NCBI GenBank assembly: GCA_015062235.1
Contig: SUUZ01000006.1
Span: 11,258 to 75,257, forward strand
Origin: Alphaproteobacteria bacterium
GTDB taxonomy: Bacteria; Pseudomonadota; Alphaproteobacteria; RF32; CAG-239
Direction: 5' to 3'
DNA: 64,000 bases
Shown: piece after piece, positions 3,823-57,255 of the stretch
Layout of the letters: every line of letters starts with the position of its first letter
Position numbering within the stretch: the stretch's first letter is position 1
Translations under genes and position numbers: made by a program
The notes under the pieces: model-generated
What the model was told of the DNA's origin: nothing
The model's database searches: none
Seen by the model: the letters and a program-made list of their open reading frames with translations, nothing else

Positions 3823-4617
3823 TTACCTTGAGAAAAATAGTTCTGTAACTATATAGTTAAATATAAGAATTAAAATAGAAGAAGAAACAACGGCATTTGT
3901 TGTTGCTGTACCAACCCCTTGAGCTCCACCCTTTGATTTGTAACCATTGTAACATCCCATTAAAGCAATTATAAAGCCAAAAACAGCTGCTTTGACAACG
4001 CCTGTTGTAATATCAAGAGCCTGCAAATCATCTAAAGTCGCATTGATGTAATTTGCGGGATTAAAACCTAACTTATAAACACCAACAACATAACCGCCGA
4101 AGATTCCTATAACATCACCAATTAAAACCAATATAGGCATAACAATTAACCCCGCCCAAATACGCGGAGCTACTAAATATTTGAAAGGATTTGTGGATAG
4201 GGTTGTTAGAGCATCTATTTGTTCTGTAACTCTCATGGTTCCTATTTCTGCGGCCATAGCGGCGCCTATTCTACCCGCAACCATTAATGCAGATAGAACT
4301 GGAGCAAGCTCTCTTGTAACAGAAATTAGAACCACACTAGCAACCATACTTTCTGCTCCAACAGATGCAAATCCTGAATAGCTTTGCAATGCTATAACCA
4401 TACCCGCAAAAATAGTTGTTAAACCGACTACTGGTAAAGAATAAAACCCCATATCTATAATTTGACGTATTAAATTTCGCCCATAAAAAGGTGGTGTTAC
4501 ACAGTTGTATATAGATTGAACTATAAATATAAACAATTCCCCAACTTTAAAAATAAAGTTAACTAAGGGCACTCCTTGTCTGCGTAAGAATTTTTCTATT
4601 TTGCGTAAAAAAAACAT
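3823..4617 (-). CDS. mlaE: ABC transporter permease MlaE/Ttg2B-like
   Basis: 264-aa polytopic membrane protein immediately upstream of the mlaF-like gene. Typical MlaE length and hydrophobicity. Confidence 0.75.
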   Translation of the reverse strand: MFFLRKIEKFLRRQGVPLVNFIFKVGELFIFIVQSIYNCVTPPFYGRNLIRQIIDMGFYSLPVVGLTTIFAGMVIALQSYSGFASVGAESMVASVVLISVTRELAPVLSALMVAGRIGAAMAAEIGTMRVTEQIDALTTLSTNPFKYLVAPRIWAGLIVMPILVLIGDVIGIFGGYVVGVYKLGFNPANYINATLDDLQALDITTGVVKAAVFGFIIALMGCYNGYKSKGGAQGVGTATTNAVVSSSILILIFNYIVTELFFSR

Positions 4618-4699
4618 TTTAATATCCTGATATAAAGTTTAATTTTTGTTTTATTCTAATATTTGGAACATAAATAATCAATCGTGATTTTAGAAATCC

Positions 4700-8654: not shown

Positions 8655-9278
8655 CTATTTTCTCCCCTTTTTTGAAATATTGTTAATTATTAATATTTTT
8701 CCTTCTTCCGAAACTATGCTTTGAACCACACGACATTTAAAGCGCCAAAATTTATGAGCCTCTGACAGCTCTGACGCGTATTTTTTACCTTTAGGAAAAA
8801 TACAAACCGTATTCTTGTGGCAGAATTTATATGCATATTCAAGCAATTCCTTTAAGGATGCCATTGCACGAGATGTTATAACATCAAAATTCTGCAACGG
8901 AATATTTTCTATTCTATCATTTATTATTGTAACTGGTGTTTTTGTAACATTTGCAACAGCATTTAAAAACAGTGTCTTTTTACGTATACTTTCAACCATA
9001 ACAACATTTAAATACGGCGTTTTTTCACCTGCTATAATAGCTATAACCATAGCAGGGAACCCAGCTCCAGAGCCAAAATCAATTAAACTTTTAGCATTTT
9101 CAGGGATGTACTCAAACAGCTGAGCAGAGTCCTCAAAATGTCTACTCCAAGCATTTTCCATACTTGACTTACTAACCAAATTAAACTTCTTTTGCCACTC
9201 AGCCAGTGTTTGGTTGTAGCTTTTAAGTTTTTCGAAAGTTTCACGTGAAACATTATATTTTTTTATAAAATTCATCAT
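8655..9278 (-). CDS. rsmG: 16S rRNA (guanine527-N7)-methyltransferase RsmG (GidB)
   Basis: SAM-binding DFGSGAGFP motif. 207 aa. Sits in the conserved mnmG-rsmG-parA-parB context. Confidence 0.9.
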   Translation of the reverse strand: MMNFIKKYNVSRETFEKLKSYNQTLAEWQKKFNLVSKSSMENAWSRHFEDSAQLFEYIPENAKSLIDFGSGAGFPAMVIAIIAGEKTPYLNVVMVESIRKKTLFLNAVANVTKTPVTIINDRIENIPLQNFDVITSRAMASLKELLEYAYKFCHKNTVCIFPKGKKYASELSEAHKFWRFKCRVVQSIVSEEGKILIINNISKKGRK

Positions 9279-9409
9279 AAATTATTTTTATATTCTTTAT
9301 AAAAAATTTAAAACACAAAAAAGAGAGTTATAAACACATAAAAACAAAAAAACTAAATTATTTTTTAAATTCAACAAGTTAAACACCATAAATTAATTTC
9401 AACAATTAA

Positions 9410-10240
9410 TTATTTACACAATCTAAAACGATATTTACAGTTGTTTTCTAATAGAAAGTTTTCTACCTCTGAAAAATGGCGCCCTATTTGGGAAACATGA
9501 TGTGAGTCGCAACTAATTATAACAGGTACCTCTCGTAGAATAAGCTCTTTTACTATATTCCAATCAGGAAAAGGTCGCCCTATGCGCTCTATTCCTCCCG
9601 TATTGATTTCAAAGGGTTGTTTTCTAAAAGAGAAAGCATCAATAATTCTATTTTTTACATCATCCCATTCTGGCGTTGTACACAAATTAAACTGGGTGCA
9701 GTAGTCAAAATGAGCTATAAAATCAAAATAACCGCTTTCTATAGCGCCTAGTATATTATCCCAATAACCATTCAAAAGTTCTTGCATGGTGTCTTTGTTA
9801 ATATTTACTGGTAGTTGATTAAGATGATAAATATTACATAAAAAAGATTCGTTAGCAGATCTTATAAAGTGCGATGCGCCAATCAGGTAATCGTAATCTA
9901 AATTTTTTATGATGTTTTCAAACCAATTACGCCATGTTGCTGAAGGAAAAAAGTCGACCTCAAACCCTTTGAAAACTTTAATTTTATGACGCGAAGCAGC
10001 TTCATCAAGCTCATTATACATTTTTTTGTAAATTTCTATTGCTTTTTGAGGGTTGTTAAAAAACATTTTACTAGTGTTTAACGGCACATTAGGATGTACA
10101 CAAAGATGATTACTCACCCCAATTTCTTCAAAACCTAAAGCTTCCGCTTGTGCAATCATTTCTTCGGCGGAACTCTTGCCATCAAAAAAGCCCTGAGAAT
10201 TATTGTGGGTGTGATAACTATATTTTTGAATATTAATCAT
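9410..10240 (-). CDS. PHP-domain phosphoesterase (histidinol-phosphatase HisJ/HisK-like)
   Basis: N-terminal YSYHTHNNSQGFFDG and later GVSNH His-rich metal-binding motifs of the PHP family. Confidence 0.55.
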   Translation of the reverse strand: MINIQKYSYHTHNNSQGFFDGKSSAEEMIAQAEALGFEEIGVSNHLCVHPNVPLNTSKMFFNNPQKAIEIYKKMYNELDEAASRHKIKVFKGFEVDFFPSATWRNWFENIIKNLDYDYLIGASHFIRSANESFLCNIYHLNQLPVNINKDTMQELLNGYWDNILGAIESGYFDFIAHFDYCTQFNLCTTPEWDDVKNRIIDAFSFRKQPFEINTGGIERIGRPFPDWNIVKELILREVPVIISCDSHHVSQIGRHFSEVENFLLENNCKYRFRLCK

Positions 10241-15590: not shown

Positions 15591-15628
15591 ATAAAACCCG
15601 CTATAATTTTTAATAGCGGGTTTTATTT
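15591..15628. terminator. bidirectional rho-independent terminator between HAD gene and rho
   Basis: AAAACCCGCTAT / ATAGCGGGTTTT 12-bp perfect stem with 10-nt loop, flanked by T/A runs. Confidence 0.65.
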
Positions 15629-16880
15629 AAGAGTTCATGTTAGAGAAAAAATCTTTATTATCTTTACTTATTTTTAATTTATCTAACAAAAATTCCATAC
15701 CATCTGTCATCCCCATTTGCATTAGTACACGGCGAAGTACCCACATCTTTGTTAAAGTGTCTTTATCAACAAGTAATTCTTCTTTACGAGTTCCTGAGCG
15801 TGTAATGTCTATAGTAGGAAATAAACGTTTATCTGTTAATTTTCTATCAAGAATTATTTCTGAATTACCAGTTCCTTTAAATTCTTCAAAAATAACCTCA
15901 TCCATACGGGAACCAGTATCAATAAGAGCAGTTGCAATGATAGTTAAAGATCCTCCTTCTTCAACATTTCTTGCAGCTCCAAGTAAACGTTTTGGTCTTT
16001 GTAAAGCATTTGCATCAACACCACCTGTTAAAACCTTACCTGATGAAGGTATAACAGTATTATAAGCCCTACCAAGACGTGTTATAGAATCTAATAAAAT
16101 TACAACATCTTTTTTGTTTTCCACTAATCGTTTTGCTTTTTCTATAACCATCTCAGCAACTTGAACGTGACGAGTTGCTGGTTCATCAAAAGTTGAAGAT
16201 ATAACTTCTCCTTTAACAGATCTAGTCATATCAGTAACTTCTTCAGGTCTTTCATCAATAAGTAAAACCATAAGATAACATTCAGGGTGATTTGTTGCTA
16301 TAGCATGAGCAATGTTTTGCAACATAACTGTTTTACCTGTACGAGGAGGTGCTACAATAAGACCGCGTTGTCCTTTTCCTTGTGGAGATATTAAATCAAT
16401 AACCCTAGTTGTATAATCTTTCTCACCACAAATAATATCAAAATTTAATTTTTCAGTAGGATATAATGGCGTAAGGTTATCAAAATTTACTCTTAATTTT
16501 GATTTTTCAGGTTCATCAAAGTTAATTTTATTAATATCAACTAGAGCAAAATATTTTTCATTTTCTTTAGGAGCTCTAATTTCACCTTCAACTGTATCAC
16601 CAGTTCTTAAACCATATTTTTTTACTTGAATTGGAGAAACATAAATATCATCTGGTCCTGCTAAATAGTTTGATTCTGATGATCTTAAAAATCCAAAACC
16701 ATCTTGCATAACCTCTATAGTTCCTTCACCTGTAATGGCTTCGTCTTCTCCGACAGTTTTTTTTAATATCGCAAACATTAAGTCTTGTTTACGCATGGAA
16801 GAAGCATCTTCAATACTTAATTCTTCAGCTTTAGCTAATAGCTCAGCAGGAGATTTTTGCTTTAGATCTTTTAAATTCAT
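15627..16880 (-). CDS. rho: transcription termination factor Rho
   Basis: N-terminal RNA-binding domain. Walker [12 protein letters not shown]. RecA-like core. 417 aa. Confidence 0.95.
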
Positions 16881-17350
16881 TTTTACCTTTATGGGATATT
16901 ATGTAGAAAGAAAAACAATTATAAGAGTTGTATATTGTGTTTATATGAAAATGTCAATTATTTTTATTAACATCCGAGAAAACCATAAGTATATTTAAAA
17001 AAGTTGTTGTTATTTGTATATTATTGTGAATGTTGTGAATTAAATTGTAATTAAGTGTTTTTACACAGAAAGAGTTGTTGTTAATAATTTTTTACGAATC
17101 CTAAAAAATATATATAGAATTATGTGTATTTTCAGAATGCTATATATTGAAAATGATTTTTTTATAAATTGTTAGTATATTATGTTATTAACAAGGTGTG
17201 TATATAAAAAACTCTTGTTTATAAGTTTGAAATTTAAATTTTAGACTTTGGTTATAGTTTAAAGTACTGTATCAATATATAGTTGTTTATACACAGATTT
17301 AAAGTGGTTTGTGGAAAAAATATGTAACTTTTTGAAATTTGAGAAAAAAT

Positions 17351-43687: not shown

Positions 43688-43734
<47 letters not shown>

Positions 43735-43809
43735 ATATTTAGAAAAATAGCACATAACATATTGTAATTAGGTAATTTTTTAACAGATTAAAGATTTTAT
43801 AAAAAATGT

Positions 43810-43835
43810 GGTGCCTCAATGGTGCCTCATTTTTT
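43810..43835. repeat. tandem GGTGCCTCA x2 + T-run motif (candidate integrase arm-type/accessory site, left end)
   Basis: GGTGCCTCAATGGTGCCTCATTTTTT. 24/26 match to the copy at 57059-57084, in the same orientation. Confidence 0.5.
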
Positions 43836-44257: not shown

Positions 44258-44292
44258 AAAAAGCACAGAATCTCCCACTTCTGTGCTTTTTT
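44258..44292. terminator. bidirectional rho-independent terminator
   Basis: AAAAAAGCACAGA ... TCTGTGCTTTTTT between the convergent small ORF and the 317-aa gene. Confidence 0.55.
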
Positions 44293-45244
44293 ATAATGGA
44301 AATAATCCATAATATTTTAAATTATCTATCAAATCACTAAAAAGTTCATCATTATTTTCAAAATGAAAACCAATACTACTATTAGAATCATAACAAATGA
44401 TTTTACTATTCTGCCTATCAAATGTTATATGTATATTAACAATATCTTCTTTACCTTGTTTAATTACAGCCTCTTGAAGTTTATCCTTGCAAGATGAAAT
44501 GGCATATGCAAGATTATACAATATTTTATCAATAGCAATTGCATATAACATTCTTTTAGTTTCTTGGAATATTTGTGGAGTGCAACTTTTATTATTAACA
44601 ACAATAGGATATATAATCTTGGATTTTCTCATACTTATAATGTCTTGTTTTGCAATTTCTTCTGATAAAGGTATGCCTTTTAAAGAGCAGCCATCTAGTA
44701 GTCCTTGCCAATTTCTATCTAATATATCTAATAAGTCTTTATCTGCAAAATTACTATGATTTCTTACATCTAAAAAAAATACATTATTTCCCCACACATA
44801 TGTAAACAGTAAAAAATTATCATTATATTTTGTTCTTTTATCAAGAGGATGAATATGCAAATGAATTATTCCCCAATCATTTAACATATAGTCATTATAA
44901 GTTAAATGATTAGAATGTGTGCTTAAATATGGTAAAATAGATGAACCTTTTTCAAAGCATTTTTGTATATTATCTATTTTTTTCTTAAATGCTTTATATA
45001 GTTTGGATTTTAATATTTCTTTGGAGTAATATACAGCCTTTTTTCCACAAGGAAGCCTTTGCATATTGTAAATATAACATTTTAACAAGTCTTTATAATC
45101 AGCATCTTTGAGATATTCTTTAGAATGTTTTGTGATTTCTATATTTTGTGTTTTTATAAAATCATTAAATAGTTCAATTAGAAAATCTCTGCAATCTTGC
45201 TTAAAATTATTAAAAATGCTTGTTATATTTACATCATCACTCAT
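44291..45244 (-). CDS. hypothetical protein translationally coupled (ATGA overlap) to Type ISP RM gene
   Basis: 317-aa ORF whose start codon overlaps the stop of the 1613-aa RM gene. No recognisable motifs. Confidence 0.4.
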   Translation of the reverse strand: MSDDVNITSIFNNFKQDCRDFLIELFNDFIKTQNIEITKHSKEYLKDADYKDLLKCYIYNMQRLPCGKKAVYYSKEILKSKLYKAFKKKIDNIQKCFEKGSSILPYLSTHSNHLTYNDYMLNDWGIIHLHIHPLDKRTKYNDNFLLFTYVWGNNVFFLDVRNHSNFADKDLLDILDRNWQGLLDGCSLKGIPLSEEIAKQDIISMRKSKIIYPIVVNNKSCTPQIFQETKRMLYAIAIDKILYNLAYAISSCKDKLQEAVIKQGKEDIVNIHITFDRQNSKIICYDSNSSIGFHFENNDELFSDLIDNLKYYGLFPL

Positions 45245-48200
45245 TTCAAATCCAATTTTGGCAATCTCTTAACAATCTCATTAGTTGCCATACTAACTGT
45301 TATAATGGATAAAATCAAGTCAAGGATATATCTTGGGTTATTGTGTTCCAATCCCCAATCATTAGGGTCATTCTTAATTCCACTATCTTTATCAATCTTA
45401 ACTTGGTATCTATCCATAATCCACTCTATTGCTGATTTACCATTAATAACATAATCATATGCTTCTAATGGAATATTCTCTATTCTGATATATGAATTGT
45501 AAATTAAGGTTGATTTATCAACATCTTTGCCATTTTTGCCAAATGATAGCTTCTCAACATAATATTTTTCACTATCTTCCCCAATAACCTTAACATCTGG
45601 ATATGCTGGAACTGCCTCATAATTTAAGTGAAGTTCTGCTAATTCTCTACCAGCTTTACTAAATGCCCAGAAATCATTAGGAACATCTACAAGAGGTATT
45701 TTTGGCAACATTTTCTTCAAATCTGCTGCAAATTGCTCTCTATAATCTTTGGAATGCAATAAACCATAAACATAATAGAATATATCTTCTTTAACTACTT
45801 TATGACCATATCTTGTTTTGCATTGTTCCAATATAAAATCAGTAATACCATCTCTTCTGATATAATTCTCTTTACCTTGGTCAAATAATGTTCCTATATT
45901 TCCCTTATTTTCTTCATAGTAATATAGTGGGAAACATTGTGAATCACCATTTAAGTGCAAATCAGGTATATGATTTACTATAATTGGAACTCCATTTTTC
46001 ATTGCAGGAAAGCAAATACACACATTTTTATGCTCTGATGTTGGGAATAATTTAGGTATCTGATACATCATTTCATTCAATGGTTTGTATAAAAACAAAT
46101 ATTGTTTATAAAATGGTCTATATACAGCATAAACAATATTACCATCTGAATAATTATATACTTTATTCTTATTTACATCATTTTGAGTTGCTCTTGTCCA
46201 AACTATTTTTGATGGCTCATAAGTAATTTGTAAGGATTTATTATCATTTAACTTATTTCTTTGTTCATTATAAAAATCAATAGTTGTTTTTATATTATTT
46301 TCTAAATCTTTTTTTGATGAATTATAACACCAAGGGTCTCTTTGGGTTTTTAATCCATTTGAATAATATGGAACAAATACAGTTCTAGTATTAGTTTTAT
46401 CATCTTTATCACCAAGAGGTATAAATGAACTAAATAAATCACTTCTTTGATTTAACCAATCATTATGCTCATTAGGTCTTAATGCCTTCCACTCTATTTT
46501 AGAATTATTTATACCCTTAAAATGCTTTAATATCTCTAATTTTTCTGTTCTTTTTAGATAATCACCAATATCATGGTAATAAATTGTTGCTTTTTCATCT
46601 GGATTTTTATTAGGTTTCTTAACAAGAATAGTGATAGCAACACCTGTCATAATATCAAATACATTTTGACCTTCTTTTTGGGCAGCATCTTTGGATTTTC
46701 CTCTAATAGCACCTCTTAAATTAAATATATGAATAGAACTAAACTCTTGTTCTAAACATTGTCTAAACCCATCCATAGAGTTAGATTCAAGCCATCCACC
46801 ATTAGTAATAAAGGCAACTATACCACCATTTTTGTTATCTAATCTATCTGATGACCATCTAAATGCCTTTATATAACTATCATATAAAGCATTTTTATTA
46901 GTGGCTGTTCCCAATTTAGCATAGGTTTCTTCAACTCTACTATCTAATTTAGGATATTTTTGGTTTTGTGCATTATCATTGGCATTTTTCTGACCAACTG
47001 AATATGGTGGATTACCAATAATAATTCTTACTGGTGCTTTCTTTTGTTCAATAACTCTTTCAGAGTTTTGTGGCAACATATCAGAGAATAATTCATCTGC
47101 TTCATCAGATTCTCCTAATTGGAATGTATCTGTTAAGCAAATACCATCAAATGGTTGGTATTCATCTTTAAGTTCCATAATATCATGGTATGCATTTTCT
47201 ATGTTAATAGAGGCAATATAGTAAGCCAATAATACAATCTCATTACAATGTAATTCTTTTGCATACTTATGTGGCAATGCCTTTTTATCAATAAGACCTT
47301 GCTGAATCATTCTTGTAATAAATGTTCCAGTGCCTGTAAATGGGTCTAAAATATGGACATTTTCATCAGATAAACTTCTGTTAAACTCTTTTTTCAATAC
47401 TTGTGCTACTGAATTATTAATAAAATCAACCACTTCAATAGGTGTATATACAATACCTAATTGTTCAACAACTTTTGGGAATGCTGTTTTGAAGAACTTA
47501 TCATATAATTCAACTATAATCTTTTGCTTACCTTCTGCATTATCAATGCCTTCAACCCTTTCTTTTACTGATTCATAGAACTTATTTAAGGTTTCAGCAT
47601 CTTTATCCATTGCTTGTTCTTCAAGTAAATCAATCATTTTCTGTAATGATTTAGATACTGCATTGTTTTGAACAAATGAATAATTCTCAAATAATGCCTC
47701 AAATACTGGTTGTGTTATAAGATGTTGTGCTAACATCTGTATAACTTCATCTTTGGATACAGATGGGTTAATATTCTTTTGTAAACCCTTTAATAAGCTA
47801 TCAAATGCTTTTTTATGCTTACCTTCTGTTGCAATAAGTAAGTTAATTCTCTCAATATATCTTTGTGCAATCTGTGCAACATCTTGTGCCCATTGGACCC
47901 AATATCTCTTATTTCCAACCTTTTGCACCATTTTAGCATAAATTGCATTTTGCAACTGGTCTATTTCAGGTAGTGGTAATGCTAATTGGGTGCTTTCTGT
48001 TGATGATGTTGTTGTATCACCATCAGAATCTGTTGCTTTACTGCCAATTCCACCAACAATAATCTTGTTATTCTTCTTTTTATTCAAATCAATCTTATTG
48101 ATTTCAGCATTAAATCTATCATCATGGGCTCTTAAAGCATTAAGGACTGTCCAAACAACCTTATATCTCTCATTATCATCCAATGCTTCTTCTGGCTTTA

Positions 48201-50082
48201 CACCTGATGGAACAACAATAGGAATAATTATATAGCCATATTTCTTATTAGGTGCTGTTCTCATAACTCTACCAACTGATTGCACCACATCAACTTGGCT
48301 ATTCTTGGCAGATAAGAACATAACAGCATCAAGTGATGGAACATCAACACCTTCTGATAAACACTTAACATTGGTCAATATATGACATTCATTGCTATCT
48401 TTTGGTGCATTTTTTAACCAAGATAACAATTCATCTCTTTGGCTTGCACCCATTGTTCCATCAATATGCTTTGATTCAACACCAACTAATTGGCTTCTTT
48501 CTTCTTGGGTTAAACTATCATAATAAGCATCTTTATGGTTATTAAACATTCCACTTATTTTTTGTGAAACTTTAATATTTTGGCAGAATGCAACTGCTTT
48601 TGTCATAGGTGATTTATCATCATTGAATGCTTCATCTGTTGATAAAACCCTTTTAGACAAAGCATTTATACAACCAATTAACTTACTAATATCATCTGTA
48701 TTGATTTCATTGCTCTTGTCTGAAATAACATTTTGTAATGCTGTTGGAATCTGTTCTTCTTTTAAGGTTAAAATCAATACCTTATAATCTGCTAATAGAT
48801 TTTTTGATACTGCTTCACCAAATCCAATTCTATACATTTCTTGTCCATAGATGCTTTCATCATCCATTGAACACAATATTGCATCATTTTCTTGGGCTTT
48901 TTGCTTACTTGCATCTGTATATAATCTTGGGGTTGCAGTCATATACATTCTTTTTTTAGCAACAATACAGTCATTATTATGGACCTTTGTAAATGATGCT
49001 TCTTCTTTATCTTTTAATACAACACCAGTAGTTCTATGGGCTTCATCACAAATTACCAAATCAAATATACAAGAATCCTTTTGTCTTTTATTGATGGCTT
49101 CTTGGGCTTTGGATATAACATCAATTGATTGATATGTAGAGAATACAACAATCATTCTATCTTTATGTTGCTGTTTTGCTAACTCATATTGATGAATAAT
49201 ATTAGGAACATTGGTTGATGCAGGTAATGCCAAATCAACCACACTCATATCATCATTGTCTGTTTTTTTGGTAATTGCTGGGTCAGAACAAATACAAATA
49301 GGATAAATTGGCTTTTCTGATTCAGCACACCATTCTCTTAATGTCTGCCCTAATAATGCTATTGATGGAACTAAAAATAGCACCAATCCACTTCCATTGG
49401 TTTCTTTTTCAGCAATTTTTAAGGATGTATAGGTCTTACCACAACCACAAGCCATTATTAACTTGCCTCTATCATTGCCTTTAAAATGCTCATTTACATT
49501 AGAAATTGCTTTATTTTGGTGGTCTCTTGGTGTTTTTTTCTGTTTTCTTGCTGATTTTCCTTCTTCTCCATTTACCAATTTATCCCAATCAACATTAGAG
49601 TTCTCTAAATCTGTTAAACTAATTCTGATAAGTGGTGGATTCTGATTTTTTATTGTATTTTCTGCTTCACCATTCCAATGGTTAGTAGTTGAAATCCATA
49701 ATCTTTGGCTAAATTGGACTGTCTCCATATTTTCATTATAAAAACTCTTGCTTGATGTAGATAAAAAACTATCAACACCAGCTTTATCAATGTAAGCATT
49801 TTCCTCATAGCATTTACATTGAACTGCCCAATAATCACCCTCAACTGTCTGTGCAACTAAATCAATTCCAGTATCTTTACCACTGAAATCTTTTCTATAT
49901 GGAAACTCATTCCATAGCCATATCTGCTTGAATCTTCCTTCATATGTTGGTTCTGACAACATATACTTCTTCATTAAGAGCTCAAATCTTGCACCCTTAT
50001 CTCTTTCAGAGAATGCTTCTCTTCTAAACTTTTTTAATACATCACTGAATGATAATATTGGTGTGGTCATATTGCTCTCCAT
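45241..50082 (-). CDS. Type ISP restriction-modification enzyme (Mrr-like nuclease + SF2 helicase-like ATPase + gamma-class N6-adenine methyltransferase + TRD, single polypeptide; LlaGI/LlaBIII-like)
   Basis: N-terminal PD-(D/E)xK-like IDLVAQTVEGDYWAVQCK. Helicase motif I ACGCGKT, motif II ICDEAHRTTG, motif VI QSVGRVMR. MTase motif I DPFTGTGTF and motif IV NPPY. Long C-terminal specificity region. 1613 aa. Confidence 0.85.
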   Translation of the reverse strand: MESNMTTPILSFSDVLKKFRREAFSERDKGARFELLMKKYMLSEPTYEGRFKQIWLWNEFPYRKDFSGKDTGIDLVAQTVEGDYWAVQCKCYEENAYIDKAGVDSFLSTSSKSFYNENMETVQFSQRLWISTTNHWNGEAENTIKNQNPPLIRISLTDLENSNVDWDKLVNGEEGKSARKQKKTPRDHQNKAISNVNEHFKGNDRGKLIMACGCGKTYTSLKIAEKETNGSGLVLFLVPSIALLGQTLREWCAESEKPIYPICICSDPAITKKTDNDDMSVVDLALPASTNVPNIIHQYELAKQQHKDRMIVVFSTYQSIDVISKAQEAINKRQKDSCIFDLVICDEAHRTTGVVLKDKEEASFTKVHNNDCIVAKKRMYMTATPRLYTDASKQKAQENDAILCSMDDESIYGQEMYRIGFGEAVSKNLLADYKVLILTLKEEQIPTALQNVISDKSNEINTDDISKLIGCINALSKRVLSTDEAFNDDKSPMTKAVAFCQNIKVSQKISGMFNNHKDAYYDSLTQEERSQLVGVESKHIDGTMGASQRDELLSWLKNAPKDSNECHILTNVKCLSEGVDVPSLDAVMFLSAKNSQVDVVQSVGRVMRTAPNKKYGYIIIPIVVPSGVKPEEALDDNERYKVVWTVLNALRAHDDRFNAEINKIDLNKKKNNKIIVGGIGSKATDSDGDTTTSSTESTQLALPLPEIDQLQNAIYAKMVQKVGNKRYWVQWAQDVAQIAQRYIERINLLIATEGKHKKAFDSLLKGLQKNINPSVSKDEVIQMLAQHLITQPVFEALFENYSFVQNNAVSKSLQKMIDLLEEQAMDKDAETLNKFYESVKERVEGIDNAEGKQKIIVELYDKFFKTAFPKVVEQLGIVYTPIEVVDFINNSVAQVLKKEFNRSLSDENVHILDPFTGTGTFITRMIQQGLIDKKALPHKYAKELHCNEIVLLAYYIASINIENAYHDIMELKDEYQPFDGICLTDTFQLGESDEADELFSDMLPQNSERVIEQKKAPVRIIIGNPPYSVGQKNANDNAQNQKYPKLDSRVEETYAKLGTATNKNALYDSYIKAFRWSSDRLDNKNGGIVAFITNGGWLESNSMDGFRQCLEQEFSSIHIFNLRGAIRGKSKDAAQKEGQNVFDIMTGVAITILVKKPNKNPDEKATIYYHDIGDYLKRTEKLEILKHFKGINNSKIEWKALRPNEHNDWLNQRSDLFSSFIPLGDKDDKTNTRTVFVPYYSNGLKTQRDPWCYNSSKKDLENNIKTTIDFYNEQRNKLNDNKSLQITYEPSKIVWTRATQNDVNKNKVYNYSDGNIVYAVYRPFYKQYLFLYKPLNEMMYQIPKLFPTSEHKNVCICFPAMKNGVPIIVNHIPDLHLNGDSQCFPLYYYEENKGNIGTLFDQGKENYIRRDGITDFILEQCKTRYGHKVVKEDIFYYVYGLLHSKDYREQFAADLKKMLPKIPLVDVPNDFWAFSKAGRELAELHLNYEAVPAYPDVKVIGEDSEKYYVEKLSFGKNGKDVDKSTLIYNSYIRIENIPLEAYDYVINGKSAIEWIMDRYQVKIDKDSGIKNDPNDWGLEHNNPRYILDLILSIITVSMATNEIVKRLPKLDLK

Positions 50083-50297: not shown

Positions 50298-50900
50298 ATG
50301 ATTTATGGATACATTAGGGTCAGTTCAGACCAGCAAAATTGTGCTAACCAAAGATTTGAATTGGACAATTATGCTGCTAAAAATAAAATAAAAATCAATG
50401 AATATATAGAAGAGACCATATCTTCAAGAAAACATCTAAAAGATAGGAAATTAGGTAAATTACTGGATAAAATTGGTAAAGATGATGTTGTAATTACTAC
50501 TGAAATATCAAGATTAGGTAGGAATATGCTTGAAGTAATGGGTATTCTTCAACAATGTTTAGAGAAAGAATGTGAAATAATCACAATTAAAGAAAATTAC
50601 CATCTTGGTGCTGATATTCAGTCAAAAGTGCTTGCTTTTGCTTTCAGTTTAGCAGCAGAAATTGAAAGACAACTTATCTCCCAAAGAACCAAAGAATGCC
50701 TAAAAAGATTAAAAAATGAAGGTAAACATTTAGGAAGACCATATGGATTTACTTATAAAAAATTAAAAAAGAAGCATAATAAAATAAAAGAACTATTGGA
50801 TAAAAATGTATCAAAAGCAGAAATAGCAAGACTTATGGGATGCACTTGGACCACACTTCATAGATACATAAATGAATATATAAAAAATAAAGAACCATAG
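50298..50900 (+). CDS. serine recombinase (resolvase/invertase family) with C-terminal HTH
   Basis: N-terminal catalytic MIYGYIRVSSDQQ (Ser nucleophile) and SRLGRN. C-terminal HTH MGCTWTTLHRYI. 200 aa. Confidence 0.85.
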   Translation: MIYGYIRVSSDQQNCANQRFELDNYAAKNKIKINEYIEETISSRKHLKDRKLGKLLDKIGKDDVVITTEISRLGRNMLEVMGILQQCLEKECEIITIKENYHLGADIQSKVLAFAFSLAAEIERQLISQRTKECLKRLKNEGKHLGRPYGFTYKKLKKKHNKIKELLDKNVSKAEIARLMGCTWTTLHRYINEYIKNKEP

Positions 50901-50937
50901 ATTTCTCTATGATTCTTCTTATGAAATTAAATGATTT
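50868..50937. repeat. 70-bp direct repeat copy A (includes last 11 codons + stop of recombinase gene and an internal CATAGA-N4-TCTATG palindrome)
   Basis: Identical 70-mer at 52343-52412. Together they bracket the Fic gene and its upstream repeat array. Confidence 0.75.
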
Positions 50938-50957
50938 GTTCTATATATTTCTCTTTT

Positions 50958-52061
50958 TTAAAAATTATTATTACCCTCAACAATATTCAGCAAATTAGCA
51001 AAAACATATGTTGTTGGTCTTTGTCCTGCACCTTTTTTATGAACCTTCAAAATATCAGCATCAACCAACTTAGATAAAATGTTATTACAGGTAGCCTTGT
51101 TATTAATTTTAACATCTTTTAATAATTTTGTTGTGGTTATAAATGGACTTTCAAATAAAGAATCACAAATAGCAGTTGAATGATATGAATGGGTAATAGA
51201 TGGAATTTTTTCTTTAACCAAATCATATAGTTCTAATATTTTCTTTGCTCTTTGTGTATTAGTCTCTGACTGAATAATCACAGCATTCAAAAAGAACTCA
51301 ACCCAAGACTGCCAATCTCCTTCAACTGATATTTTATTGAGTTTATTATAATATTCCCCTCTATTATTTTCTAAATATTCACTTAAGTAAAAAACAGGAG
51401 ACCTCAAATAATTTTTGGAATATAAGAATAAAGGAATAAGGATTCTTCCCATTCTTCCATTTCCATCATTAAAAGGGTGAATAATTTCAAACTGAGAATG
51501 CAAAATGGCTAATTGAACCAATGTTTCCTCATCTTCTTTATGCATATATTTTTCAAAATTATCCAAAGCAGGAAGCATATCAACATATTGAGGAGGAACA
51601 TATCTAGCATTTTCTATTGTATCACCTGCTGCACCAATAAAAACATCTGTTGTTCTAAATTCTCCTCTATTTTTATTATGACCTCTAACACCAGCCAATA
51701 ATCTAAAATGAATATCCTTCAACATATTTAAGCAAAGAGGTCTTTGAGTTAAATCCTCAGTAGCAAAGGCTAAAGCATTTCTATAATTGTTAATTTCCTC
51801 AATATCATTTTCTTTTTCTTGGTCATATTTTTCACCCAAATCTTTTTGATAAATATCTGATAAAGATGCCCTTGTTCCTTCAATTTTAGAAGACAAAACA
51901 GCCTCTTGTTTGGTTAAGGGGGATAAAAGAATTTTAGGATTTACCATATTATGTAAAATTCCATTATAATTAGATAGTTTGGCATTTGCTTTGCCAATTA
52001 GTGGTGCTAATGCTTGCCAATCTAGACCACTAATGGGTAATTTATCTGGAATAAAATACAT
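50958..52061 (-). CDS. Fic-domain protein (AMPylator/Fic-DOC family), class II with N-terminal inhibitory motif
   Basis: Fic motif HPFNDGNGRMGRIL. N-terminal inhibitory-helix motif SSKIEG ([ST]xxxE[GN]). 367 aa. Confidence 0.9.
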   Translation of the reverse strand: MYFIPDKLPISGLDWQALAPLIGKANAKLSNYNGILHNMVNPKILLSPLTKQEAVLSSKIEGTRASLSDIYQKDLGEKYDQEKENDIEEINNYRNALAFATEDLTQRPLCLNMLKDIHFRLLAGVRGHNKNRGEFRTTDVFIGAAGDTIENARYVPPQYVDMLPALDNFEKYMHKEDEETLVQLAILHSQFEIIHPFNDGNGRMGRILIPLFLYSKNYLRSPVFYLSEYLENNRGEYYNKLNKISVEGDWQSWVEFFLNAVIIQSETNTQRAKKILELYDLVKEKIPSITHSYHSTAICDSLFESPFITTTKLLKDVKINNKATCNNILSKLVDADILKVHKKGAGQRPTTYVFANLLNIVEGNNNF

Positions 52062-52342
52062 CTTAACCTCTTTGTTTGAAATTTATACACACTTTATTTT
52101 ACATAATATACATTGTGTAAAATTTAAAAGCAATATATTTTACACAAATTTATTTGTATAAAACCTGTTATTCACAAAACAATTTGTGTAAAATATTTAA
52201 GAGGTAAGTTATACACAAAACATTTTGTGTATAATAAAATTGACACTAAATTATTTGTGTATAAAAAAATCAAAAAATTTTTACACAAATACAAGTGTGC
52301 AGAATTCTCATTTCTGTTTATTTCTATAAAATTCAACAAGAT
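52062..52342. repeat. iteron-like array: at least 7 copies of TTTGTGTA(A/T)AA / TTTTACACAAA in both orientations incl. palindrome TATACACAAAA-CA-TTTTGTGTATA
   Basis: Copies read directly at about 52113, 52138, 52158, 52178, 52190, 52220, 52232, 52255 and 52285. AT-rich. Lies upstream of Fic and inside the 70-bp-DR-bounded cassette. Confidence 0.6.
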
Positions 52343-52412
52343 ATAAATGAATATATAAAAAATAAAGAACCATAGATTTCTCTATGATTCTTCTTATGAA
52401 ATTAAATGATTT
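52343..52412. repeat. 70-bp direct repeat copy B
   Basis: Identical to 50868-50937. Confidence 0.75.
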
Positions 52413-52466
52413 ATTATACATAATAATAAAAAGGGCTCATAATTGCCCTAAATTGCTTTATTTTAA

Positions 52467-53189
52467 TTACAATTCCATCATTTCCTTATGTGTAACATAT
52501 TTGTTTTCTATTTCATCTAATAGTAAAATCATTGCATTACTATCAACAATTCTTGCTAAATCTTGACAATCTAAATTAACAATAGGTATTGGACATACTG
52601 TGCTTCCATTATAGTAATTTAACAAACTTGTTAAATACTGCCATTTGTTGAACACTGTAATGTGGGTAGCAAGAATGCCATAATTATCTGGCAGACTATT
52701 TATATTTGCTCCTTTTTCTAATAGATATTCAACTAAATAGGTATCATTCTTTCTCAATGCTAATATTAGGGCACTTTCACCTAAATCATTAGTAGCATCA
52801 ATATCTTCCCCCTTATCTAATAGGACATCTATAACAATTTTTTTATCAAACTTACATATTTTTGGATTTGCTACCACTGCCATCAATAATGTGTAGTTAT
52901 TCTTATGTTTCTTTTGGATATTTAAAATATCAATCTCTGGCAGAAGTCTTGTATAATTTTCTTCTTCTAAAAATAATCTAAATAAATCATCATTACCCAT
53001 AATTGGGTAGAATTGTTGCAATAATTGCTCTTCTGTTATGAAGGACAATCTATTAATTAATTTTTGAATATATTTGGCATTAGGGGACATAAGGAATGAA
53101 GGTATTGTCTCCTTATAAACTGATTTGAATAAATCAATTATTTCTTTTTTTGTAATACCACTAAAATCAACTTTATTACTATTATCCAT
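52467..53189 (-). CDS. ankyrin-repeat protein
   Basis: At least 2-3 ANK repeats: DATNDLGESALILALRKNDTYLVEYLLEKGANINS. 240 aa. Confidence 0.7.
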   Translation of the reverse strand: MDNSNKVDFSGITKKEIIDLFKSVYKETIPSFLMSPNAKYIQKLINRLSFITEEQLLQQFYPIMGNDDLFRLFLEEENYTRLLPEIDILNIQKKHKNNYTLLMAVVANPKICKFDKKIVIDVLLDKGEDIDATNDLGESALILALRKNDTYLVEYLLEKGANINSLPDNYGILATHITVFNKWQYLTSLLNYYNGSTVCPIPIVNLDCQDLARIVDSNAMILLLDEIENKYVTHKEMMEL

Positions 53190-53226: not shown

Positions 53227-54165
53227 CTAATATGAATTGGCAAATAATACATCTTGTTTATTGTAGATTTTGGATATCTTATTGTAAAAATCCATTCCTA
53301 ATAACTGCTTTTTCTCATCTGTTATGTCTTCTTTTATTGAATATGAATAAATGCCATCATTTTTAACTTTACCTAATTCAATATCTAATTTGGGATATTT
53401 GGGATTTAGATAGGTAAGGGAATAAAATATTATTTCACCTGTTTTTTTATCTATATGTTCCTTCTTTTTTGCCAAATTATGTTGGGGGAACTTACATATT
53501 TCTTTATCTATTCCTTTATTTTTACAATATATGATGCCATCAACATTTTCTAAATCATTACATTCTATTGTATCATAATGATTTTTATGAAGATTTAAAA
53601 GATTATAAAATATAAAATCTTTTAGTTCTTTTGCTTCATCATCTGTTACATCAATTAGTAGATGATAATGGGTATGTTCTTCTACATCCCTAACTTTCCC
53701 ATTTTCTTCAAATAAGAAGAATTTAGGTATTTTATCTAATTTCTTATACCATCTTTTACCTAATTTATTGCTGTAATAGAATCTCAATATATTATGTAAT
53801 TCATTGAATAATTGATTTTCTTCATTCCAAGTTTTAGGATTTATTGATATAAATTGGGGATTTGTCATCAATTGATGTATTGTATCAGTTGTTGTTTCCA
53901 ATTTTGGAAGTGATTTATCTTGCTCTCTTATTTTAAAATTTATTTCATTCACTAATGAATTAAAATTATATTCATCAATTGCTTTTAATTCAGTTATGTA
54001 ATTTGAATCAATAAATTGATATTTCTTTAATTGTTCAATATTTCTATCTTTAATTGCTTTAAATGACAGATTTAATTTGTTTAATCTTTTGATTTTATTA
54101 TAAAAATCAATTTGTTTTAATTCTCTTGCTGTATATTTTGTTCCTACAATATTACTCATAATCAC
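53227..54165 (-). CDS. hypothetical protein with possible HUH-endonuclease-like motifs (HTHYHLLI ... IIYCKNK)
   Basis: His-hydrophobic-His motif at about residue 165 and a Tyr/Lys motif about 40 aa downstream, as in rolling-circle Rep/relaxase proteins. Otherwise unassignable. Confidence 0.3.
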   Translation of the reverse strand: MIMSNIVGTKYTARELKQIDFYNKIKRLNKLNLSFKAIKDRNIEQLKKYQFIDSNYITELKAIDEYNFNSLVNEINFKIREQDKSLPKLETTTDTIHQLMTNPQFISINPKTWNEENQLFNELHNILRFYYSNKLGKRWYKKLDKIPKFFLFEENGKVRDVEEHTHYHLLIDVTDDEAKELKDFIFYNLLNLHKNHYDTIECNDLENVDGIIYCKNKGIDKEICKFPQHNLAKKKEHIDKKTGEIIFYSLTYLNPKYPKLDIELGKVKNDGIYSYSIKEDITDEKKQLLGMDFYNKISKIYNKQDVLFANSY

Positions 54166-54883: not shown

Positions 54884-54960
54884 ACTGGTGTAGCTCATCT
54901 GGATAGAGCACAGGTTTCCTAAACCTGGGGTAGGGGGTTCAAGTCCCCCCACTAGTGCCA
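54884..54960 (+). tRNA. tRNA-Arg (anticodon CCT), intact, island-borne
   Basis: Manual cloverleaf: acceptor ACTGGTG/CACTAGT. D-arm GCTC-ATCTGGATA-GAGC. Anticodon arm CAGGT-TTCCTAA-ACCTG. T-arm GGGGG-TTCAAGT-CCCCC. Encoded CCA. 77 nt. Confidence 0.88.
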
Positions 54961-55899
54961 GTTTCTGTGTTTTATCTGATGTGTTGCCTCATATTCTTCT
55001 ATATCTTTTAACTTATAAAATACTTTGCTACCTATTTTAATATAGTTAGGACCTTCCCTTCTGACTCTCCATCCCATTAGGGTATTTTCTTTCATATTCC
55101 AGTAATCTGCCAATTCTTTGGTGGTCAGCATATCTTTTTCAATTTTTTGAGAATCTGATTGTTTTACCTTTACATCATTGGTAATAATTTTAATTCCATT
55201 GCTGTCCTTATGTTGTAATTGTAGTTTTTCAATTTCATTAGCATATAGGTCAAATTTTGAGTTTTTTAGTGAATTTTTGAATATTTCCAAGCATTTTATG
55301 AAATCTTGCTTGTGTTTTCCTTTGAAATCAATATTCAACATTTCAAACTTTTCACCAAATATTGTCTTTGTCATCCAGAATAAATTATGGAAAATAGAAT
55401 CCTTAATACAACTGTTCATATTCCAATCTCTTCCATAGAAAGATACTTCATCTTTGAACTCTGTGTTATAGAATTGGAGTCCCTTATCATCATTGTGGTG
55501 TTTTGTTTCTTCTATATCACATCTAAATGTTGCTTCTTTATAAAAGATAACTCTATCAAATACTGTGTTTTTATTAAAAATAGAATCCTTGAAAAAGACA
55601 GAATCCTTAAACTTTATGTCTTTAAATTTTAAATATGTTTTGAATGATGTATTACTAAAATTGACAATATCATTAAAATCACAGTTATTAAATGATAGGG
55701 ATGAGGTGATTTTTAATTCATTTCCTTCAATTTTACCAAACTTACAGTTATCAAACTTTGTATTTTTTGTTTCTAATAATAGAATCTCTACCAATTCACT
55801 ATTATCTGCTTGTGTAAAGTCAATATCCTTAAAATTAGCAATTTTTTGCTGAATAAACTTCTCTTGATTAAAGTGTGTCTCTCTTTTGTATTTTCTCAT
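54952..55899 (-). CDS. Xis/AlpA-like HTH (excisionase-family) protein with N-terminal Phe-rich 5-6-residue tandem repeat domain
   Basis: C-terminal LTTKELADYWNMKENTLMGWRVRREGPNYIKIGSKVFY matches the excisionase/MerR-like HTH. N-terminal region has F at 5/6-residue intervals (beta-solenoid-like). Stop overlaps the tRNA 3' end. Confidence 0.5.
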   Translation of the reverse strand: MRKYKRETHFNQEKFIQQKIANFKDIDFTQADNSELVEILLLETKNTKFDNCKFGKIEGNELKITSSLSFNNCDFNDIVNFSNTSFKTYLKFKDIKFKDSVFFKDSIFNKNTVFDRVIFYKEATFRCDIEETKHHNDDKGLQFYNTEFKDEVSFYGRDWNMNSCIKDSIFHNLFWMTKTIFGEKFEMLNIDFKGKHKQDFIKCLEIFKNSLKNSKFDLYANEIEKLQLQHKDSNGIKIITNDVKVKQSDSQKIEKDMLTTKELADYWNMKENTLMGWRVRREGPNYIKIGSKVFYKLKDIEEYEATHQIKHRNWH

Positions 55900-55903
55900 A
55901 TTA

Positions 55904-57046
55904 CTATCCTATCATCTTCTTAACTGTGTCATTTAGTGTTTCTCTTAGTTGCTCAACATCAAGGTTCACATAAATCTGTGTGCTTTGAATATTAGAATGA
56001 GTTAGTGCTTTTTTCACTTGGAAAGCATTGGCACCATATGAGACCATATATGTTGCCAATGTATGTCTTAAATCATGGAGGTGTAAATTAGTAATTTCTG
56101 CTTGGGTTAATATAGATTTCCAAGTTCCTCTAACCTCTGTGATATGCCCTGTTTTAGATTCAGTTGAGAAGAATACATATTCATTGTATTTTGTTTCTGC
56201 TAATCTTTTTAATATTTTAACAGCACTATCTACCAAGGCAACAGACATATTTTTGCCTGTTTTTGTTTCTGGGATTACCCAAGTTTTACTTTCCAAATCC
56301 ACATCTTGCCATCTCATAGAAAATACATTGCTTCTCCTTGCTCCTGTCATCAATAGCAACCAAATAGCATCTTTGGATATAGAATCTGGATAATTATTGA
56401 TGACCTCAACAAACTTTTCCATTTCTTTTTTGGTTAAATACCTAATTCTTGGGGATTCTTTATTCAACTGAACTGGAACTACTGGGTTTCTGCCATCATA
56501 AAGGTTTCCTTTAATGAAATAATTAAAGATGGTTTTGGAAAATACAATAGAATGATTGGCACACCTTTTACCATTATTAGTGGTGATTTTTTTATGTAAT
56601 TTTTTGAAATCATCAGTGGTTAATTGAGATATTTTCTTGTTTCCAAGAACATTTAAATAGTTTTTCCATAGTCCTTTATAACCATCAATAGTTCTTGGTT
56701 TTAGGTGTTGTTCTTTTTCCTCTATGAATTTTTCATACATAACTTTAAAAGAATCCTCTTGATTTAATTTCTTCTTTTCAGCAATAGGATTCTTGCCTGA
56801 ATTCAACATAATTTTAGTTTTTCTTGCCTCATTTCTTGCTTCATCAACACTCATAAATGATGGTTCACCAAGTTTTACTCTTATCTGATTACCAAGAACT
56901 CTACCTCTTAAATAATAACTTTTATTACCACTTGGAGTTAATAGAAGGGATAAACCTTTCTCTTCTGTGTCATAAACATAGACCCTTTTATTTTGAGGTT
57001 TCAGATTCTTAATATTAGCATTAGTAAACTTGAACTTGTTGCTCAT
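55904..57046 (-). CDS. int: tyrosine recombinase, P4-type integrase
   Basis: N-terminal arm-binding domain (FTNANIKNLKPQNKRVYVYDTEEKGLSLLLTPSGNKSYYLR). C-terminal catalytic HDLRHT...Y motifs. 380 aa. Confidence 0.9.
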   Translation of the reverse strand: MSNKFKFTNANIKNLKPQNKRVYVYDTEEKGLSLLLTPSGNKSYYLRGRVLGNQIRVKLGEPSFMSVDEARNEARKTKIMLNSGKNPIAEKKKLNQEDSFKVMYEKFIEEKEQHLKPRTIDGYKGLWKNYLNVLGNKKISQLTTDDFKKLHKKITTNNGKRCANHSIVFSKTIFNYFIKGNLYDGRNPVVPVQLNKESPRIRYLTKKEMEKFVEVINNYPDSISKDAIWLLLMTGARRSNVFSMRWQDVDLESKTWVIPETKTGKNMSVALVDSAVKILKRLAETKYNEYVFFSTESKTGHITEVRGTWKSILTQAEITNLHLHDLRHTLATYMVSYGANAFQVKKALTHSNIQSTQIYVNLDVEQLRETLNDTVKKMIG

Positions 57047-57058
57047 CTATACCCCCTT

Positions 57059-57084
57059 GGTGCCTCATTGGTGCCTCACTTTTT
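57059..57084. repeat. tandem GGTGCCTCA x2 + T-run motif (right-end copy, 13 bp upstream of int start codon)
   Basis: GGTGCCTCATTGGTGCCTCACTTTTT. Matches 43810-43835. Confidence 0.5.
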
Positions 57085-57205
57085 ATCAATTTTGATAAAT
57101 TTAAATCAATACACAAGAAAAATAAAATGCTTGATTTTTATTGAAATACAGTATATTAAGAAGAATATTGGGTGTCAATGAAAAAGATAAAAAACCTTGC
57201 TTCCA

Positions 57206-57255
57206 CAGTTTCCTAAACTGTGGGTAGGAGGTTCGAGTCCTCTCACTGGCGCCAT
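57206..57255 (+). pseudogene. 3' portion (anticodon arm to CCA) of the disrupted host tRNA-Arg(CCT); includes right 20-bp direct repeat (57206-57225)
   Basis: ACAGT-TTCCTAA-ACTGT-GGGTA-GGAGG-TTCGAGT-CCTCT-CACTGGC-G-CCA. Followed by a strong terminator. Confidence 0.7.

Follow-up and report, generated by a model that had tools for sequence, protein, structure and literature searches.

A phased array of palindromes beside a SoFic-type fic gene in an alphaproteobacterial defence island: candidate binding sites for the Fic protein

Introduction

What binds a dense cluster of AT-rich repeats that lies in an island among several genes for possible DNA-binding proteins? The question is raised by a 64,000-nucleotide stretch of an Alphaproteobacteria bacterium (GenBank assembly GCA_015062235.1, contig SUUZ01000006.1, positions 11,258 to 75,257 of the forward strand; hereafter the window, with position 1 as its first letter), in which repeats of the type TTWTACACA occupy the space between the start codon of a minus-strand fic gene and the stop codon of an ankyrin-repeat (Ank) gene (Table 1). 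A preliminary description of the window suggested either plasmid-like iterons or origin repeats, or an array of operators, and named as possible binders the DNA-binding domain of the Fic protein itself, a nearby serine recombinase and an HUH-like protein. We consider it probable (about 0.75) that the array consists of binding sites for the SoFic-type Fic protein encoded next to it, most likely operators, and we refer to these sites as SoFic boxes. SoFic is a widespread single-gene anti-phage system, and the question that the array addresses is how such an enzyme is restrained before infection and what triggers its activation.

Results and Discussion

The array is built from six phased palindromes

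Reading of the region, a motif scan and shuffled controls agree that the repeats upstream of fic are real, non-random and far above chance. There are six exact matches to TTTGTGTAWAA in the window and all six lie inside 52138-52289; when one mismatch is allowed there are 24, nine of them within 52112-52289, compared with a mean of 12.0 +/- 3.5 in shuffled sequence and no shuffle of 100 with 24 or more. The motif is thus not a common AT-rich word of this DNA, as outside the array the 64 kb contain no exact copy. Repeat analysis and a table of half-sites show that the 11-mer is one half of a 26-bp palindrome (12+2+12) with the consensus TTWTACACAAAW-NN-WTTTGTGTAWAA. The array extends from 52083 to 52304 with a GC content of 19%, and contains 13 half-sites (consensus TTWTACACAAAW) arranged as six palindromes, S1 to S6, and a lone half-site, S0. 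The preliminary description had counted at least seven copies of a motif of about 11 bp in both orientations within 52062-52342 and had singled out a near-perfect palindrome, TATACACAAAA-CA-TTTTGTGTATA; both observations hold, and the latter is S4, the arms of which match at every position. The centres of S1 to S6 are 41, 30, 41, 30 and 40 bp apart, giving three units of 71 bp. A 55-residue open reading frame (ORF) with a TTG start lies within the array (52172-52339) and is probably spurious, no relative having a gene called there.

Table 1. Coordinates of the array, the fic gene and other features of the island (positions in the window)
Feature	Coordinates	Strand	Remarks
S0	52083-52094		lone half-site TTATACACACTT, between putative fic -10 and ribosome-binding site
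S1	52097-52122		promoter-proximal palindrome TTTTACATAATA-TA-CATTGTGTAAAA; arms 10/12 complementary; collinear in relatives
S2	52138-52163		palindrome TTTTACACAAAT-TT-ATTTGTATAAAA; arms 11/12 complementary
S3	52168-52193		palindrome TTATTCACAAAA-CA-ATTTGTGTAAAA; arms 9/12 complementary
S4	52209-52234		perfect palindrome TTATACACAAAA-CA-TTTTGTGTATAA; arms 12/12 complementary
S5	52239-52264		degenerate palindrome ATTGACACTAAA-TT-ATTTGTGTATAA; arms 7/12 complementary
S6	52279-52304		distal palindrome TTTTACACAAAT-AC-AAGTGTGCAGAA; arms 8/12 complementary; inner half alone kept in relatives
Putative fic promoter	52105-52133	-	-35 TTGCTT (52133-52128), 17-nt spacer, -10 TATATT (52110-52105); predicted from sequence
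fic ribosome-binding site	52067-52071	-	AGAGG, 5 nt before the fic ATG
SoFic-type fic gene	50958-52061	-	full-length; ATG at 52061; proposed array binder
91-bp direct repeat, left copy	50857-50947	+	3' end of recombinase gene and terminator hairpin
91-bp direct repeat, right copy	52332-52422	+	just outside S6; copies 91% identical, with a 69-bp perfect core
PD-T4-7-like protein	44291-45244
Type ISP restriction-modification enzyme	45241-50082		1613 aa
Serine recombinase	50298-50900	+	200 aa
Ankyrin-repeat (Ank) protein gene	stop at 52467
312-aa ORF	53227-54165		no Pfam or PADLOC match; HUH-like HTHYHLLI and YxxK-like YSYSIKE, by eye
Weak DUF6626 ORF			within the island
Pentapeptide-repeat/HTH_17 excisionase-like protein	54952-55899		directly upstream of the integrase
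Tyrosine integrase	55904-57046

The array is inherited with fic and not with its neighbours

Homologue contexts were fetched for both candidate genes, the serine recombinase and fic. In seven loci whose recombinase is 89-96% identical to that of the window (L001-L007), the recombinase and Ank genes are directly convergent, and there is neither a fic gene nor a single copy of the motif. One of these, L007, aligns without interruption over the junction and represents the empty site, from which it follows that fic and the array together (about 50938-52340) are a 1.4-kb insertion into a recombinase/Ank backbone. Related islands with the recombinase/Ank/DUF6626 backbone lack the array. The relatives of fic behave in the opposite way. 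All ten loci with a 96% identical Fic protein (L009-L018) carry the same array directly 5' of fic, with differing housekeeping genes further upstream and a variable set of genes downstream (an OLD/Gabija-like ATPase, GmrSD, HEPN or RloB, then a small recombinase, then restriction-modification (RM) or reverse-transcriptase (RT) genes). Their homology to the window begins about 12 bp outside S6 and stops within a few nucleotides of the fic stop codon. In loci with 84-87% identical Fic proteins the 26-bp palindromes are collinear and their 41/30/40 spacing is kept, the half-site having drifted to TTTTATACWAAT; in two contexts of this group (L027-L028 and L030-L033) the array is present and neither a serine recombinase nor an HUH-like ORF lies within 5 kb. 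Here and in the more distant loci described below, the sites are co-inherited with fic and not with the neighbouring genes. Because recombinase relatives lack the array, whereas fic relatives keep it in differing contexts, the array on this comparative evidence belongs to fic and not to the recombinase or the HUH-like ORF, and the suggestion that either of the latter is the binder finds no support.

Just outside the conserved array of L009-L018, at about 4630-4690, there is a hairpin whose sequence differs from locus to locus and whose form is constant (CACC..A-run, stem, loop, stem, T-run..GGTG, with compensatory changes). L010 has two copies 155 bp apart (4484-4524 and 4639-4679). This hairpin could serve the variable region as a target site or as a boundary element.

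The proximity of the recombinase nonetheless raises the possibility that the palindromes are recombination sites, either hix- or res-like sites for the 200-aa serine recombinase or attC-like sites mobilising a fic cassette. The hix and gix sites share the 12+2+12 geometry, the recombinase gene is 1.2 kb away, and the 1.4-kb insertion is discrete, lying between the 91-bp direct repeats. These consist of the last 44 nt of the recombinase gene and a terminator hairpin, and bracket exactly the array and the fic ORF. Homology to other fic loci ends close to S6 and to the fic stop codon, and whether the array is 5' or 3' of fic varies among loci, as it would in circular permutations of one cassette. 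However, the junctions of the insertion are within the 91-bp repeat and outside the palindromes, arrays exist with no serine recombinase within 5 kb, and across 77 loci from GTDB genomes fic has no consistently linked recombinase. Moreover, sites that are merely 30-41 bp apart are not known to partner in serine-recombinase synapsis. In other fic loci we also looked upstream of the array for a copy of the 3' end of the recombinase gene and found none. As homologues of the recombinase occur without fic and motif, and fic loci free of a recombinase keep the array, hix- or res-like sites were rejected, and we regard recombination sites of any of these kinds as very improbable.

The second proposal, that the repeats are iterons or a replication origin of the island bound by the 312-aa HUH-like protein, has in its favour a dense AT-rich cluster within an integrative island and a nearby ORF with two suggestive motifs, both recognised by eye (Table 1). 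But the repeats are palindromes of alternating orientation and not same-sense repeats, the ORF matches no Pfam or PADLOC family, and the array accompanies fic in loci that lack such an ORF, and across phyla. The backbone islands without an array and the arrival of fic and array as one insertion into that backbone point the same way. With no family match for the ORF and no linkage to the array elsewhere, this candidate was rejected; plasmid iterons or origin repeats, as first suggested, are hardly credible here. Several fic loci (L009, at 8937-9878, is one example) have an ORF of 313 aa, also with no Pfam match, near the small recombinase.

A core box accompanies distant fic genes in many phyla

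A scan with the Fic alignment, using one genome per species, yielded 80 loci from many phyla of GTDB with 44-55% identity, and a de novo search for repeats upstream of these distant fic genes finds, in several groups, arrays that share the core of the window array. The repeats are CATACACAA in Marinobacter (six copies), CTCCACAAAATCTTTTGTGGAG in Thiopseudomonas, TGAGACACAAAA in Flavobacteria, TGATACACAA in Balneolaceae, TTGGACACAAAA in Fibrobacter and CTTTACACAAAG in a spirochaete. The invariant core across phyla is CACAAA(W)-NN-(W)TTTGTG, and the outer three to four bases are specific to each clade. Among 77 fic loci the 16-bp palindrome CACAAAWNNWTTTGTG, with up to one mismatch, has eight occurrences in the 300 bp upstream of fic and 17 in the 300 bp downstream, and is absent from the 77 fic genes themselves and from 450 kb of remaining flank. 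The density of CACAAA/TTTGTG is 2.6 per kb upstream and 5.9 per kb downstream, against a background of 0.53 per kb, and at least three boxes are present in the two fic flanks together at 28 of 70 loci, compared with 3 of 673 control windows. The association of the core box with fic is overwhelming. Spacing is conserved as well: a half-site pattern of 12/18/12/28-30 recurs in the Marinobacter, Thiopseudomonas and Fibrobacter loci, and palindromes 30 and 40-41 bp apart are recurrent in alphaproteobacterial, gammaproteobacterial and non-proteobacterial loci. An unbiased scan of JGI (Joint Genome Institute) metagenomes for two core palindromes 10-30 bp apart returned 32 loci, 15 of which have an adjoining SoFic-like fic gene; the other matches are LacI-type operators, REP/RAYT elements, a ParA locus, eukaryote-like repeats and contigs too short to judge.

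Two archaeal SoFic-like genes are also rich in boxes, with 13 CACAA cores in Methanosaeta (L109) and eight in Methanolinea (L110); the commonest outer bases in the former give GAATCACAA. In a Type I RM locus that has no fic gene (L121), the interval between hsdM and a HATPase_c_4 (RecG-C-like) gene contains a pair of CACAAAT-type palindromes (1730-1785) at a spacing of 40 bp, and another defence-island protein with a winged helix-turn-helix (wHTH) may use a similar box there.

These comparisons also bear on a third possibility, that the array is a cluster of DnaA boxes that binds host DnaA and serves as a controlled promoter, a datA-like sink or an origin of the excised island. The half-site TTWTACACA fits the DnaA-box consensus TTWTNCACA, and half of the 18 matches to the latter in the window are in 52083-52287. 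The probable host oriC contains TTTTACACA, TTATACACA and TTTTCCACA, and since it carries the same type of box the array should resemble good DnaA boxes in this host. Arrays in other phyla, however, keep CACAAA(W) and the inner A/T tract, and their outer bases (GAGA, TGGA, GATA, CTC and others) break the DnaA consensus; DnaA boxes were demoted as a candidate on finding that arrays in Bacteroidota, Fibrobacterota, Gammaproteobacteria and other groups retain CACAAA and not TTWT. Even in the relatives with 84-87% identical Fic proteins the boxes drift to TTTTATACT, losing C6 and A9, which are fixed in the consensus. TTWTNCACA is not meaningfully enriched upstream of 78 distant fic genes, with two or more copies at none of these loci, and to our knowledge neither strict 12-2-12 dyad symmetry nor an invariant 3-bp AAW extension is a feature of DnaA boxes. 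We therefore think a DnaA-box cluster highly unlikely. The probable chromosomal oriC itself is a 458-bp AT-rich gap (16881-17338) between rho (15627-16880, minus strand) and coaE/dnaQ (17339 onward, plus strand), downstream of gidA-mnmE and at a change of sign in the GC skew.

The adjacent gene encodes a SoFic-type Fic protein

The product of the window fic gene has the catalytic motif HxFx(D/E)GNGRxxR (HPFNDGNGRMGR, residues 195-206), with H195, P196, F197, D199, G200, N201, G202, R203 and R206 invariant in Fic alignment A3, and the inhibitory helix of class II Fic proteins, (S/T)xxxE(G/N), as S57-S58-K-I60-E61-G62, which is also invariant in A3. Pfam matches are strong to Fic (E=5e-20) and Fic_N (E=1e-22), and weak when taken alone to SoFic-like_C (20.6 bits, under the 27-bit cut-off); the PADLOC hidden Markov model for SoFic covers residues 3-362 (E=2e-107), and phmmer matches SoFic chains in the PDB with E~1e-33. 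An AF2 (AlphaFold2) model (pLDDT, the predicted local distance difference test score, 89; pTM, the predicted template modelling score, 0.88) superposes on SoFic 3EQX with a template modelling (TM) score of 0.81-0.83 across about 367 columns, the C-terminal wHTH included, and on a CccR-like chain, 7xux, with 0.55-0.59, below the SoFic match (0.82). The modelled winged helix (residues 295-353) has helices at 295-304, 310-317 and 322-334 and a two-strand wing at 339-353. By its motifs and model the window protein is a SoFic-type class II AMPylase with the full-length SoFic fold including the wHTH. Members of this family form dimers and have a winged helix at the C terminus, and dimerisation through the N-terminal helix and sequence-specific binding to their own flanking DNA are on record for SoFic and CccR. 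The window protein is a candidate anti-phage toxin, and its gene lies in a defence island.

In distant loci, particular predicted recognition helices of the wHTH are paired with particular outer bases of the box: KQTAMP..QI with GGA-CACAA, [EK]KT.PGLLR with CTC-CACAA, and KPTA[LM]GLLRQL with GATA-CACAA. A Mantel test of recognition helix against outer bases gives a weak but non-random correlation (r=0.10, reached in 29 of 2000 permutations) that phylogeny confounds. The pairings fit a wHTH that would read the variable outer bases.

S1 and S0 occupy the putative fic promoter and leader

A candidate promoter for fic is predicted within the array, and S1 lies between and over its -35 and -10 hexamers, overlapping the -10 and the spacer. 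Relatives of fic have TTGATT or TTGACT at the same position, followed after 17 nt by TATAAA, TATTAT or TATTCT. In relatives a promoter-distal half-site homologous to S0 adjoins the ribosome-binding site (RBS) or the ATG.

The palindromes might instead act as RNA hairpins in the 5' or 3' untranslated region (UTR) of fic, influencing stability or translation. Every palindrome could form a hairpin, the boxes are directly 5' or 3' of the ORF, as is typical of UTR elements, and the changes in the outer stem between clades look compensatory. Yet most of the window array is upstream of the conserved -35 and -10, the 2-bp centre would be a sterically poor loop, and lone half-sites are common and conserved. 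The spacing of 30, 40 or 41 bp is near to whole turns of DNA and has no rationale in RNA, Rfam gives only sub-threshold matches to miRNA-like hairpins, and SoFic binds double-stranded promoter DNA. A role as RNA is accordingly scarcely probable.

A model for the array and the evidence that weighs on it

The suggestion that the array is a set of operators for the DNA-binding domain of the Fic protein itself is the one favoured here, as the array follows fic in every context examined, distant fic genes of many phyla have the core box in their flanks, and Fic proteins with a C-terminal wHTH or HTH domain are known from experiment to bind their own promoters (PMC9755527; bioRxiv 10.64898/2026.07.09.737422). 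Our choice of Fic as the probable binder is by analogy with the CccR and SoFic experiments, and the dyad symmetry of the sites suggests that the window protein would dimerise and bind specifically to its own flanking DNA; confidence in pure autorepression of fic is somewhat lower than in Fic as the binder. In the model that we propose, one Fic dimer would occupy each 26-bp palindrome. Spacings of 30 and 41 bp correspond to about three and four turns at roughly 10.1 bp per turn, which would place the dimers roughly on one face of the DNA and allow them to assemble cooperatively. Because S1 overlaps the -10 and spacer of the putative promoter and S0 is between promoter and RBS, occupancy of S1 and S0 would block RNA polymerase and turn off fic transcription. 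The outcome would be a steep negative autoregulation by which a toxic enzyme is kept low and buffered.

Several observations weigh against operators of this simple kind. The -35 of the window promoter agrees with TTGACA at just three of six positions, and a generic promoter scan of the array DNA (~20% GC) scored no higher than shuffles. Taken by itself the core palindrome is not confined to fic, since the LacI-type operators, REP/RAYT elements and ParA locus have similar ones. Among 70 distant loci the boxes are downstream only at 25, upstream only at 10 and on both sides at three, and the downstream boxes are mostly in the first 100 bp past the fic stop codon; this 3' bias is not explained by simple promoter repression or occlusion. 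Finally, the CACAAA core is invariant across phyla and the predicted recognition helix is highly variable, so that the core must be read by conserved parts (such as the GxGRRPxxYxF wing) or by something else. Many of the downstream boxes separate fic from hsdR or another defence gene, and some adjoin nothing obviously regulated; examples with spacings of 30, 40 or 41 bp are L125, L127, L131, L134 and L140, and L040, L078, L095 and L100 from GTDB. The upstream position holds in the clade of the window and not throughout the family, and autorepression may be only a part of the function, or specific to clades with upstream arrays like that of the window.

The 3' bias of the boxes, together with a core that is invariant despite the variable recognition helix, leaves room for a primary role away from the promoter. 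The boxes might not be primarily operators and might instead form a landing pad in cis on which SoFic dimers are sequestered beside their own gene, acting as a DNA antitoxin or buffer. What prompts this idea is that in Bacteria and in the two methanogen loci the boxes are within ~100 bp of either end of fic (more often the 3' end), that their 30/40-bp phasing is conserved and that the core is invariant; we consider it unlikely. Dimers bound to DNA would be non-toxic, in the way that CbFic2 is switched by DNA, and a loss of binding induced by phage, through degradation of host DNA, competition or a change in supercoiling, would free the AMPylase to act on EF-Tu. The 13 half-sites of the window would then be a pad of unusually high capacity, one that in this host also mimics nine DnaA boxes.

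Whether as operators or as a landing pad, the boxes define a cis-element open to experiment, CACAAAW-NN-WTTTGTG with outer bases specific to each clade. They also have a higher-order geometry, in which up to six palindromes are phased at 30/40-41 bp, and an unexpected positional rule, with boxes close to either end of fic and mostly 3'. What the wHTH reads, whether occupancy of the DNA controls transcription, the state of the enzyme or both, and whether loss of the DNA tether is a signal of infection can now be tested. There is also a lesson for annotation, in that a dense array of palindromes in a defence island is not necessarily an origin or a set of recombination sites.

The island and its other features

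The fic gene and its array are within a 13.5-kb defence island that encodes a PD-T4-7-like protein, a Type ISP RM enzyme and the SoFic-type protein. The island splits a host tRNA-Arg(CCT) gene in the anticodon arm, with the halves at 43688-43733 and 57205-57254 and a 20-bp core repeat, ACAGTTTCCTAAACTGTGGG, at 43714-43733 and 57205-57224. Neither junction rebuilds the tRNA; the island has an intact tRNA-Arg(CCT) gene of its own (54884-54960), with about 75% identity along 61 nt that cover its 5' part, and this copy presumably makes up for the function that the host lost. The gene at 54952-55899, the 3' end of which overlaps this tRNA gene by 9 nt, encodes an unusual fusion of N-terminal pentapeptide repeats and a C-terminal HTH_17/Tn916-Xis-like excisionase domain. 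Paired copies of GGTGCCTCA-N2-GGTGCCTCA in the same orientation are just inside the two island ends (43809-43827 and 57059-57077), and are probably arm-type sites of the tyrosine integrase. Relatives exchange Type III RM, OLD/Gabija-like, GmrSD, HEPN, RloB and reverse-transcriptase genes around a small serine recombinase.

Comparison with known systems

One close counterpart is SoFic itself (SO_4266/MloA of Shewanella oneidensis), which has the same fold and the same order of domains, a Fic_N helix, the Fic domain and a wHTH, with about 24% identity to the window protein. A preprint of July 2026 reports that the SoFic dimer, and not the monomer, binds the 300 bp upstream of its own gene sequence-specifically, most strongly the proximal 100 bp; the data are co-elution with 300-bp and 100-bp promoter fragments, with no operator defined (bioRxiv 10.64898/2026.07.09.737422). 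In our reading of the bound DNA in its Table S2, which is not a claim of its authors, ATCGACAT/ATGTCGAT is present five or six times, including a palindrome, ATGTCGATTGAATCGACAT, and one copy is beside the RBS. On this reading the DNA shares with the window array a motif that recurs in both orientations, as well as a palindrome and a half-site beside the RBS; the differences are that the S. oneidensis motif is ATCGACAT and not CACAAA, and that no stoichiometry or regulatory effect is defined. Also in this family is EcSofic, a toxin that acts against phage and has a small antitoxin, AS1, downstream; the paper describing it is silent on DNA binding (PMC12249575). We looked for an AS1-like small antitoxin ORF after the downstream arrays and found no consistent ORF, and no antitoxin gene is evident beside fic in the window.

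CccR (YPK_0951 of Yersinia pseudotuberculosis) is similarly an AMPylase toxin of the Fic type that has an HTH-type domain at its C terminus and inverted repeats at its own promoter. Its dimer represses its own gene through AGATAATCAT-N26-ATGATAATCT at the -35 and -10, and the palindromes are essential for binding (PMC9755527). It differs in having a single operator, with two 10-bp half-sites 26 bp apart that match HTH domains 70 A apart, whereas the window has six compact 12-2-12 palindromes and a half-site with a 71-bp period and another sequence. CccR is moreover an effector of a type VI secretion system, and the window gene is a defence gene of the SoFic type. CbFic2 of Coxiella burnetii, a class II Fic protein with a wHTH in which DNA-induced dimerisation switches the enzyme between AMPylase and deAMPylase (PMC10628234), provides a precedent for DNA as an allosteric regulator of Fic, although it is reported to bind DNA in a largely non-specific way, has histone H3 as its target and has no known cognate array of sites.

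Two further systems bear comparison. In phd/doc a toxic Fido-family enzyme, Doc, is also held low by cooperative binding to multiple palindromes that overlap the promoter, but the binder is a separate antitoxin, Phd, whereas the toxin of the window itself carries the DNA-binding domain. Clusters of DnaA boxes such as oriC and datA resemble the array in that nine 9-mers in 205 bp of it fit TTWTNCACA, but the array has dyad symmetry and an extended conserved AAW, and the consensus is lost in other clades. In the literature searched, and within the limits of that collection, we found no description of a conserved box or of a phased multi-site array for SoFic. Autoregulation by Fic proteins with a wHTH is thus already known, and what is added here is a box that spans phyla, its conserved phasing and its 3' bias.

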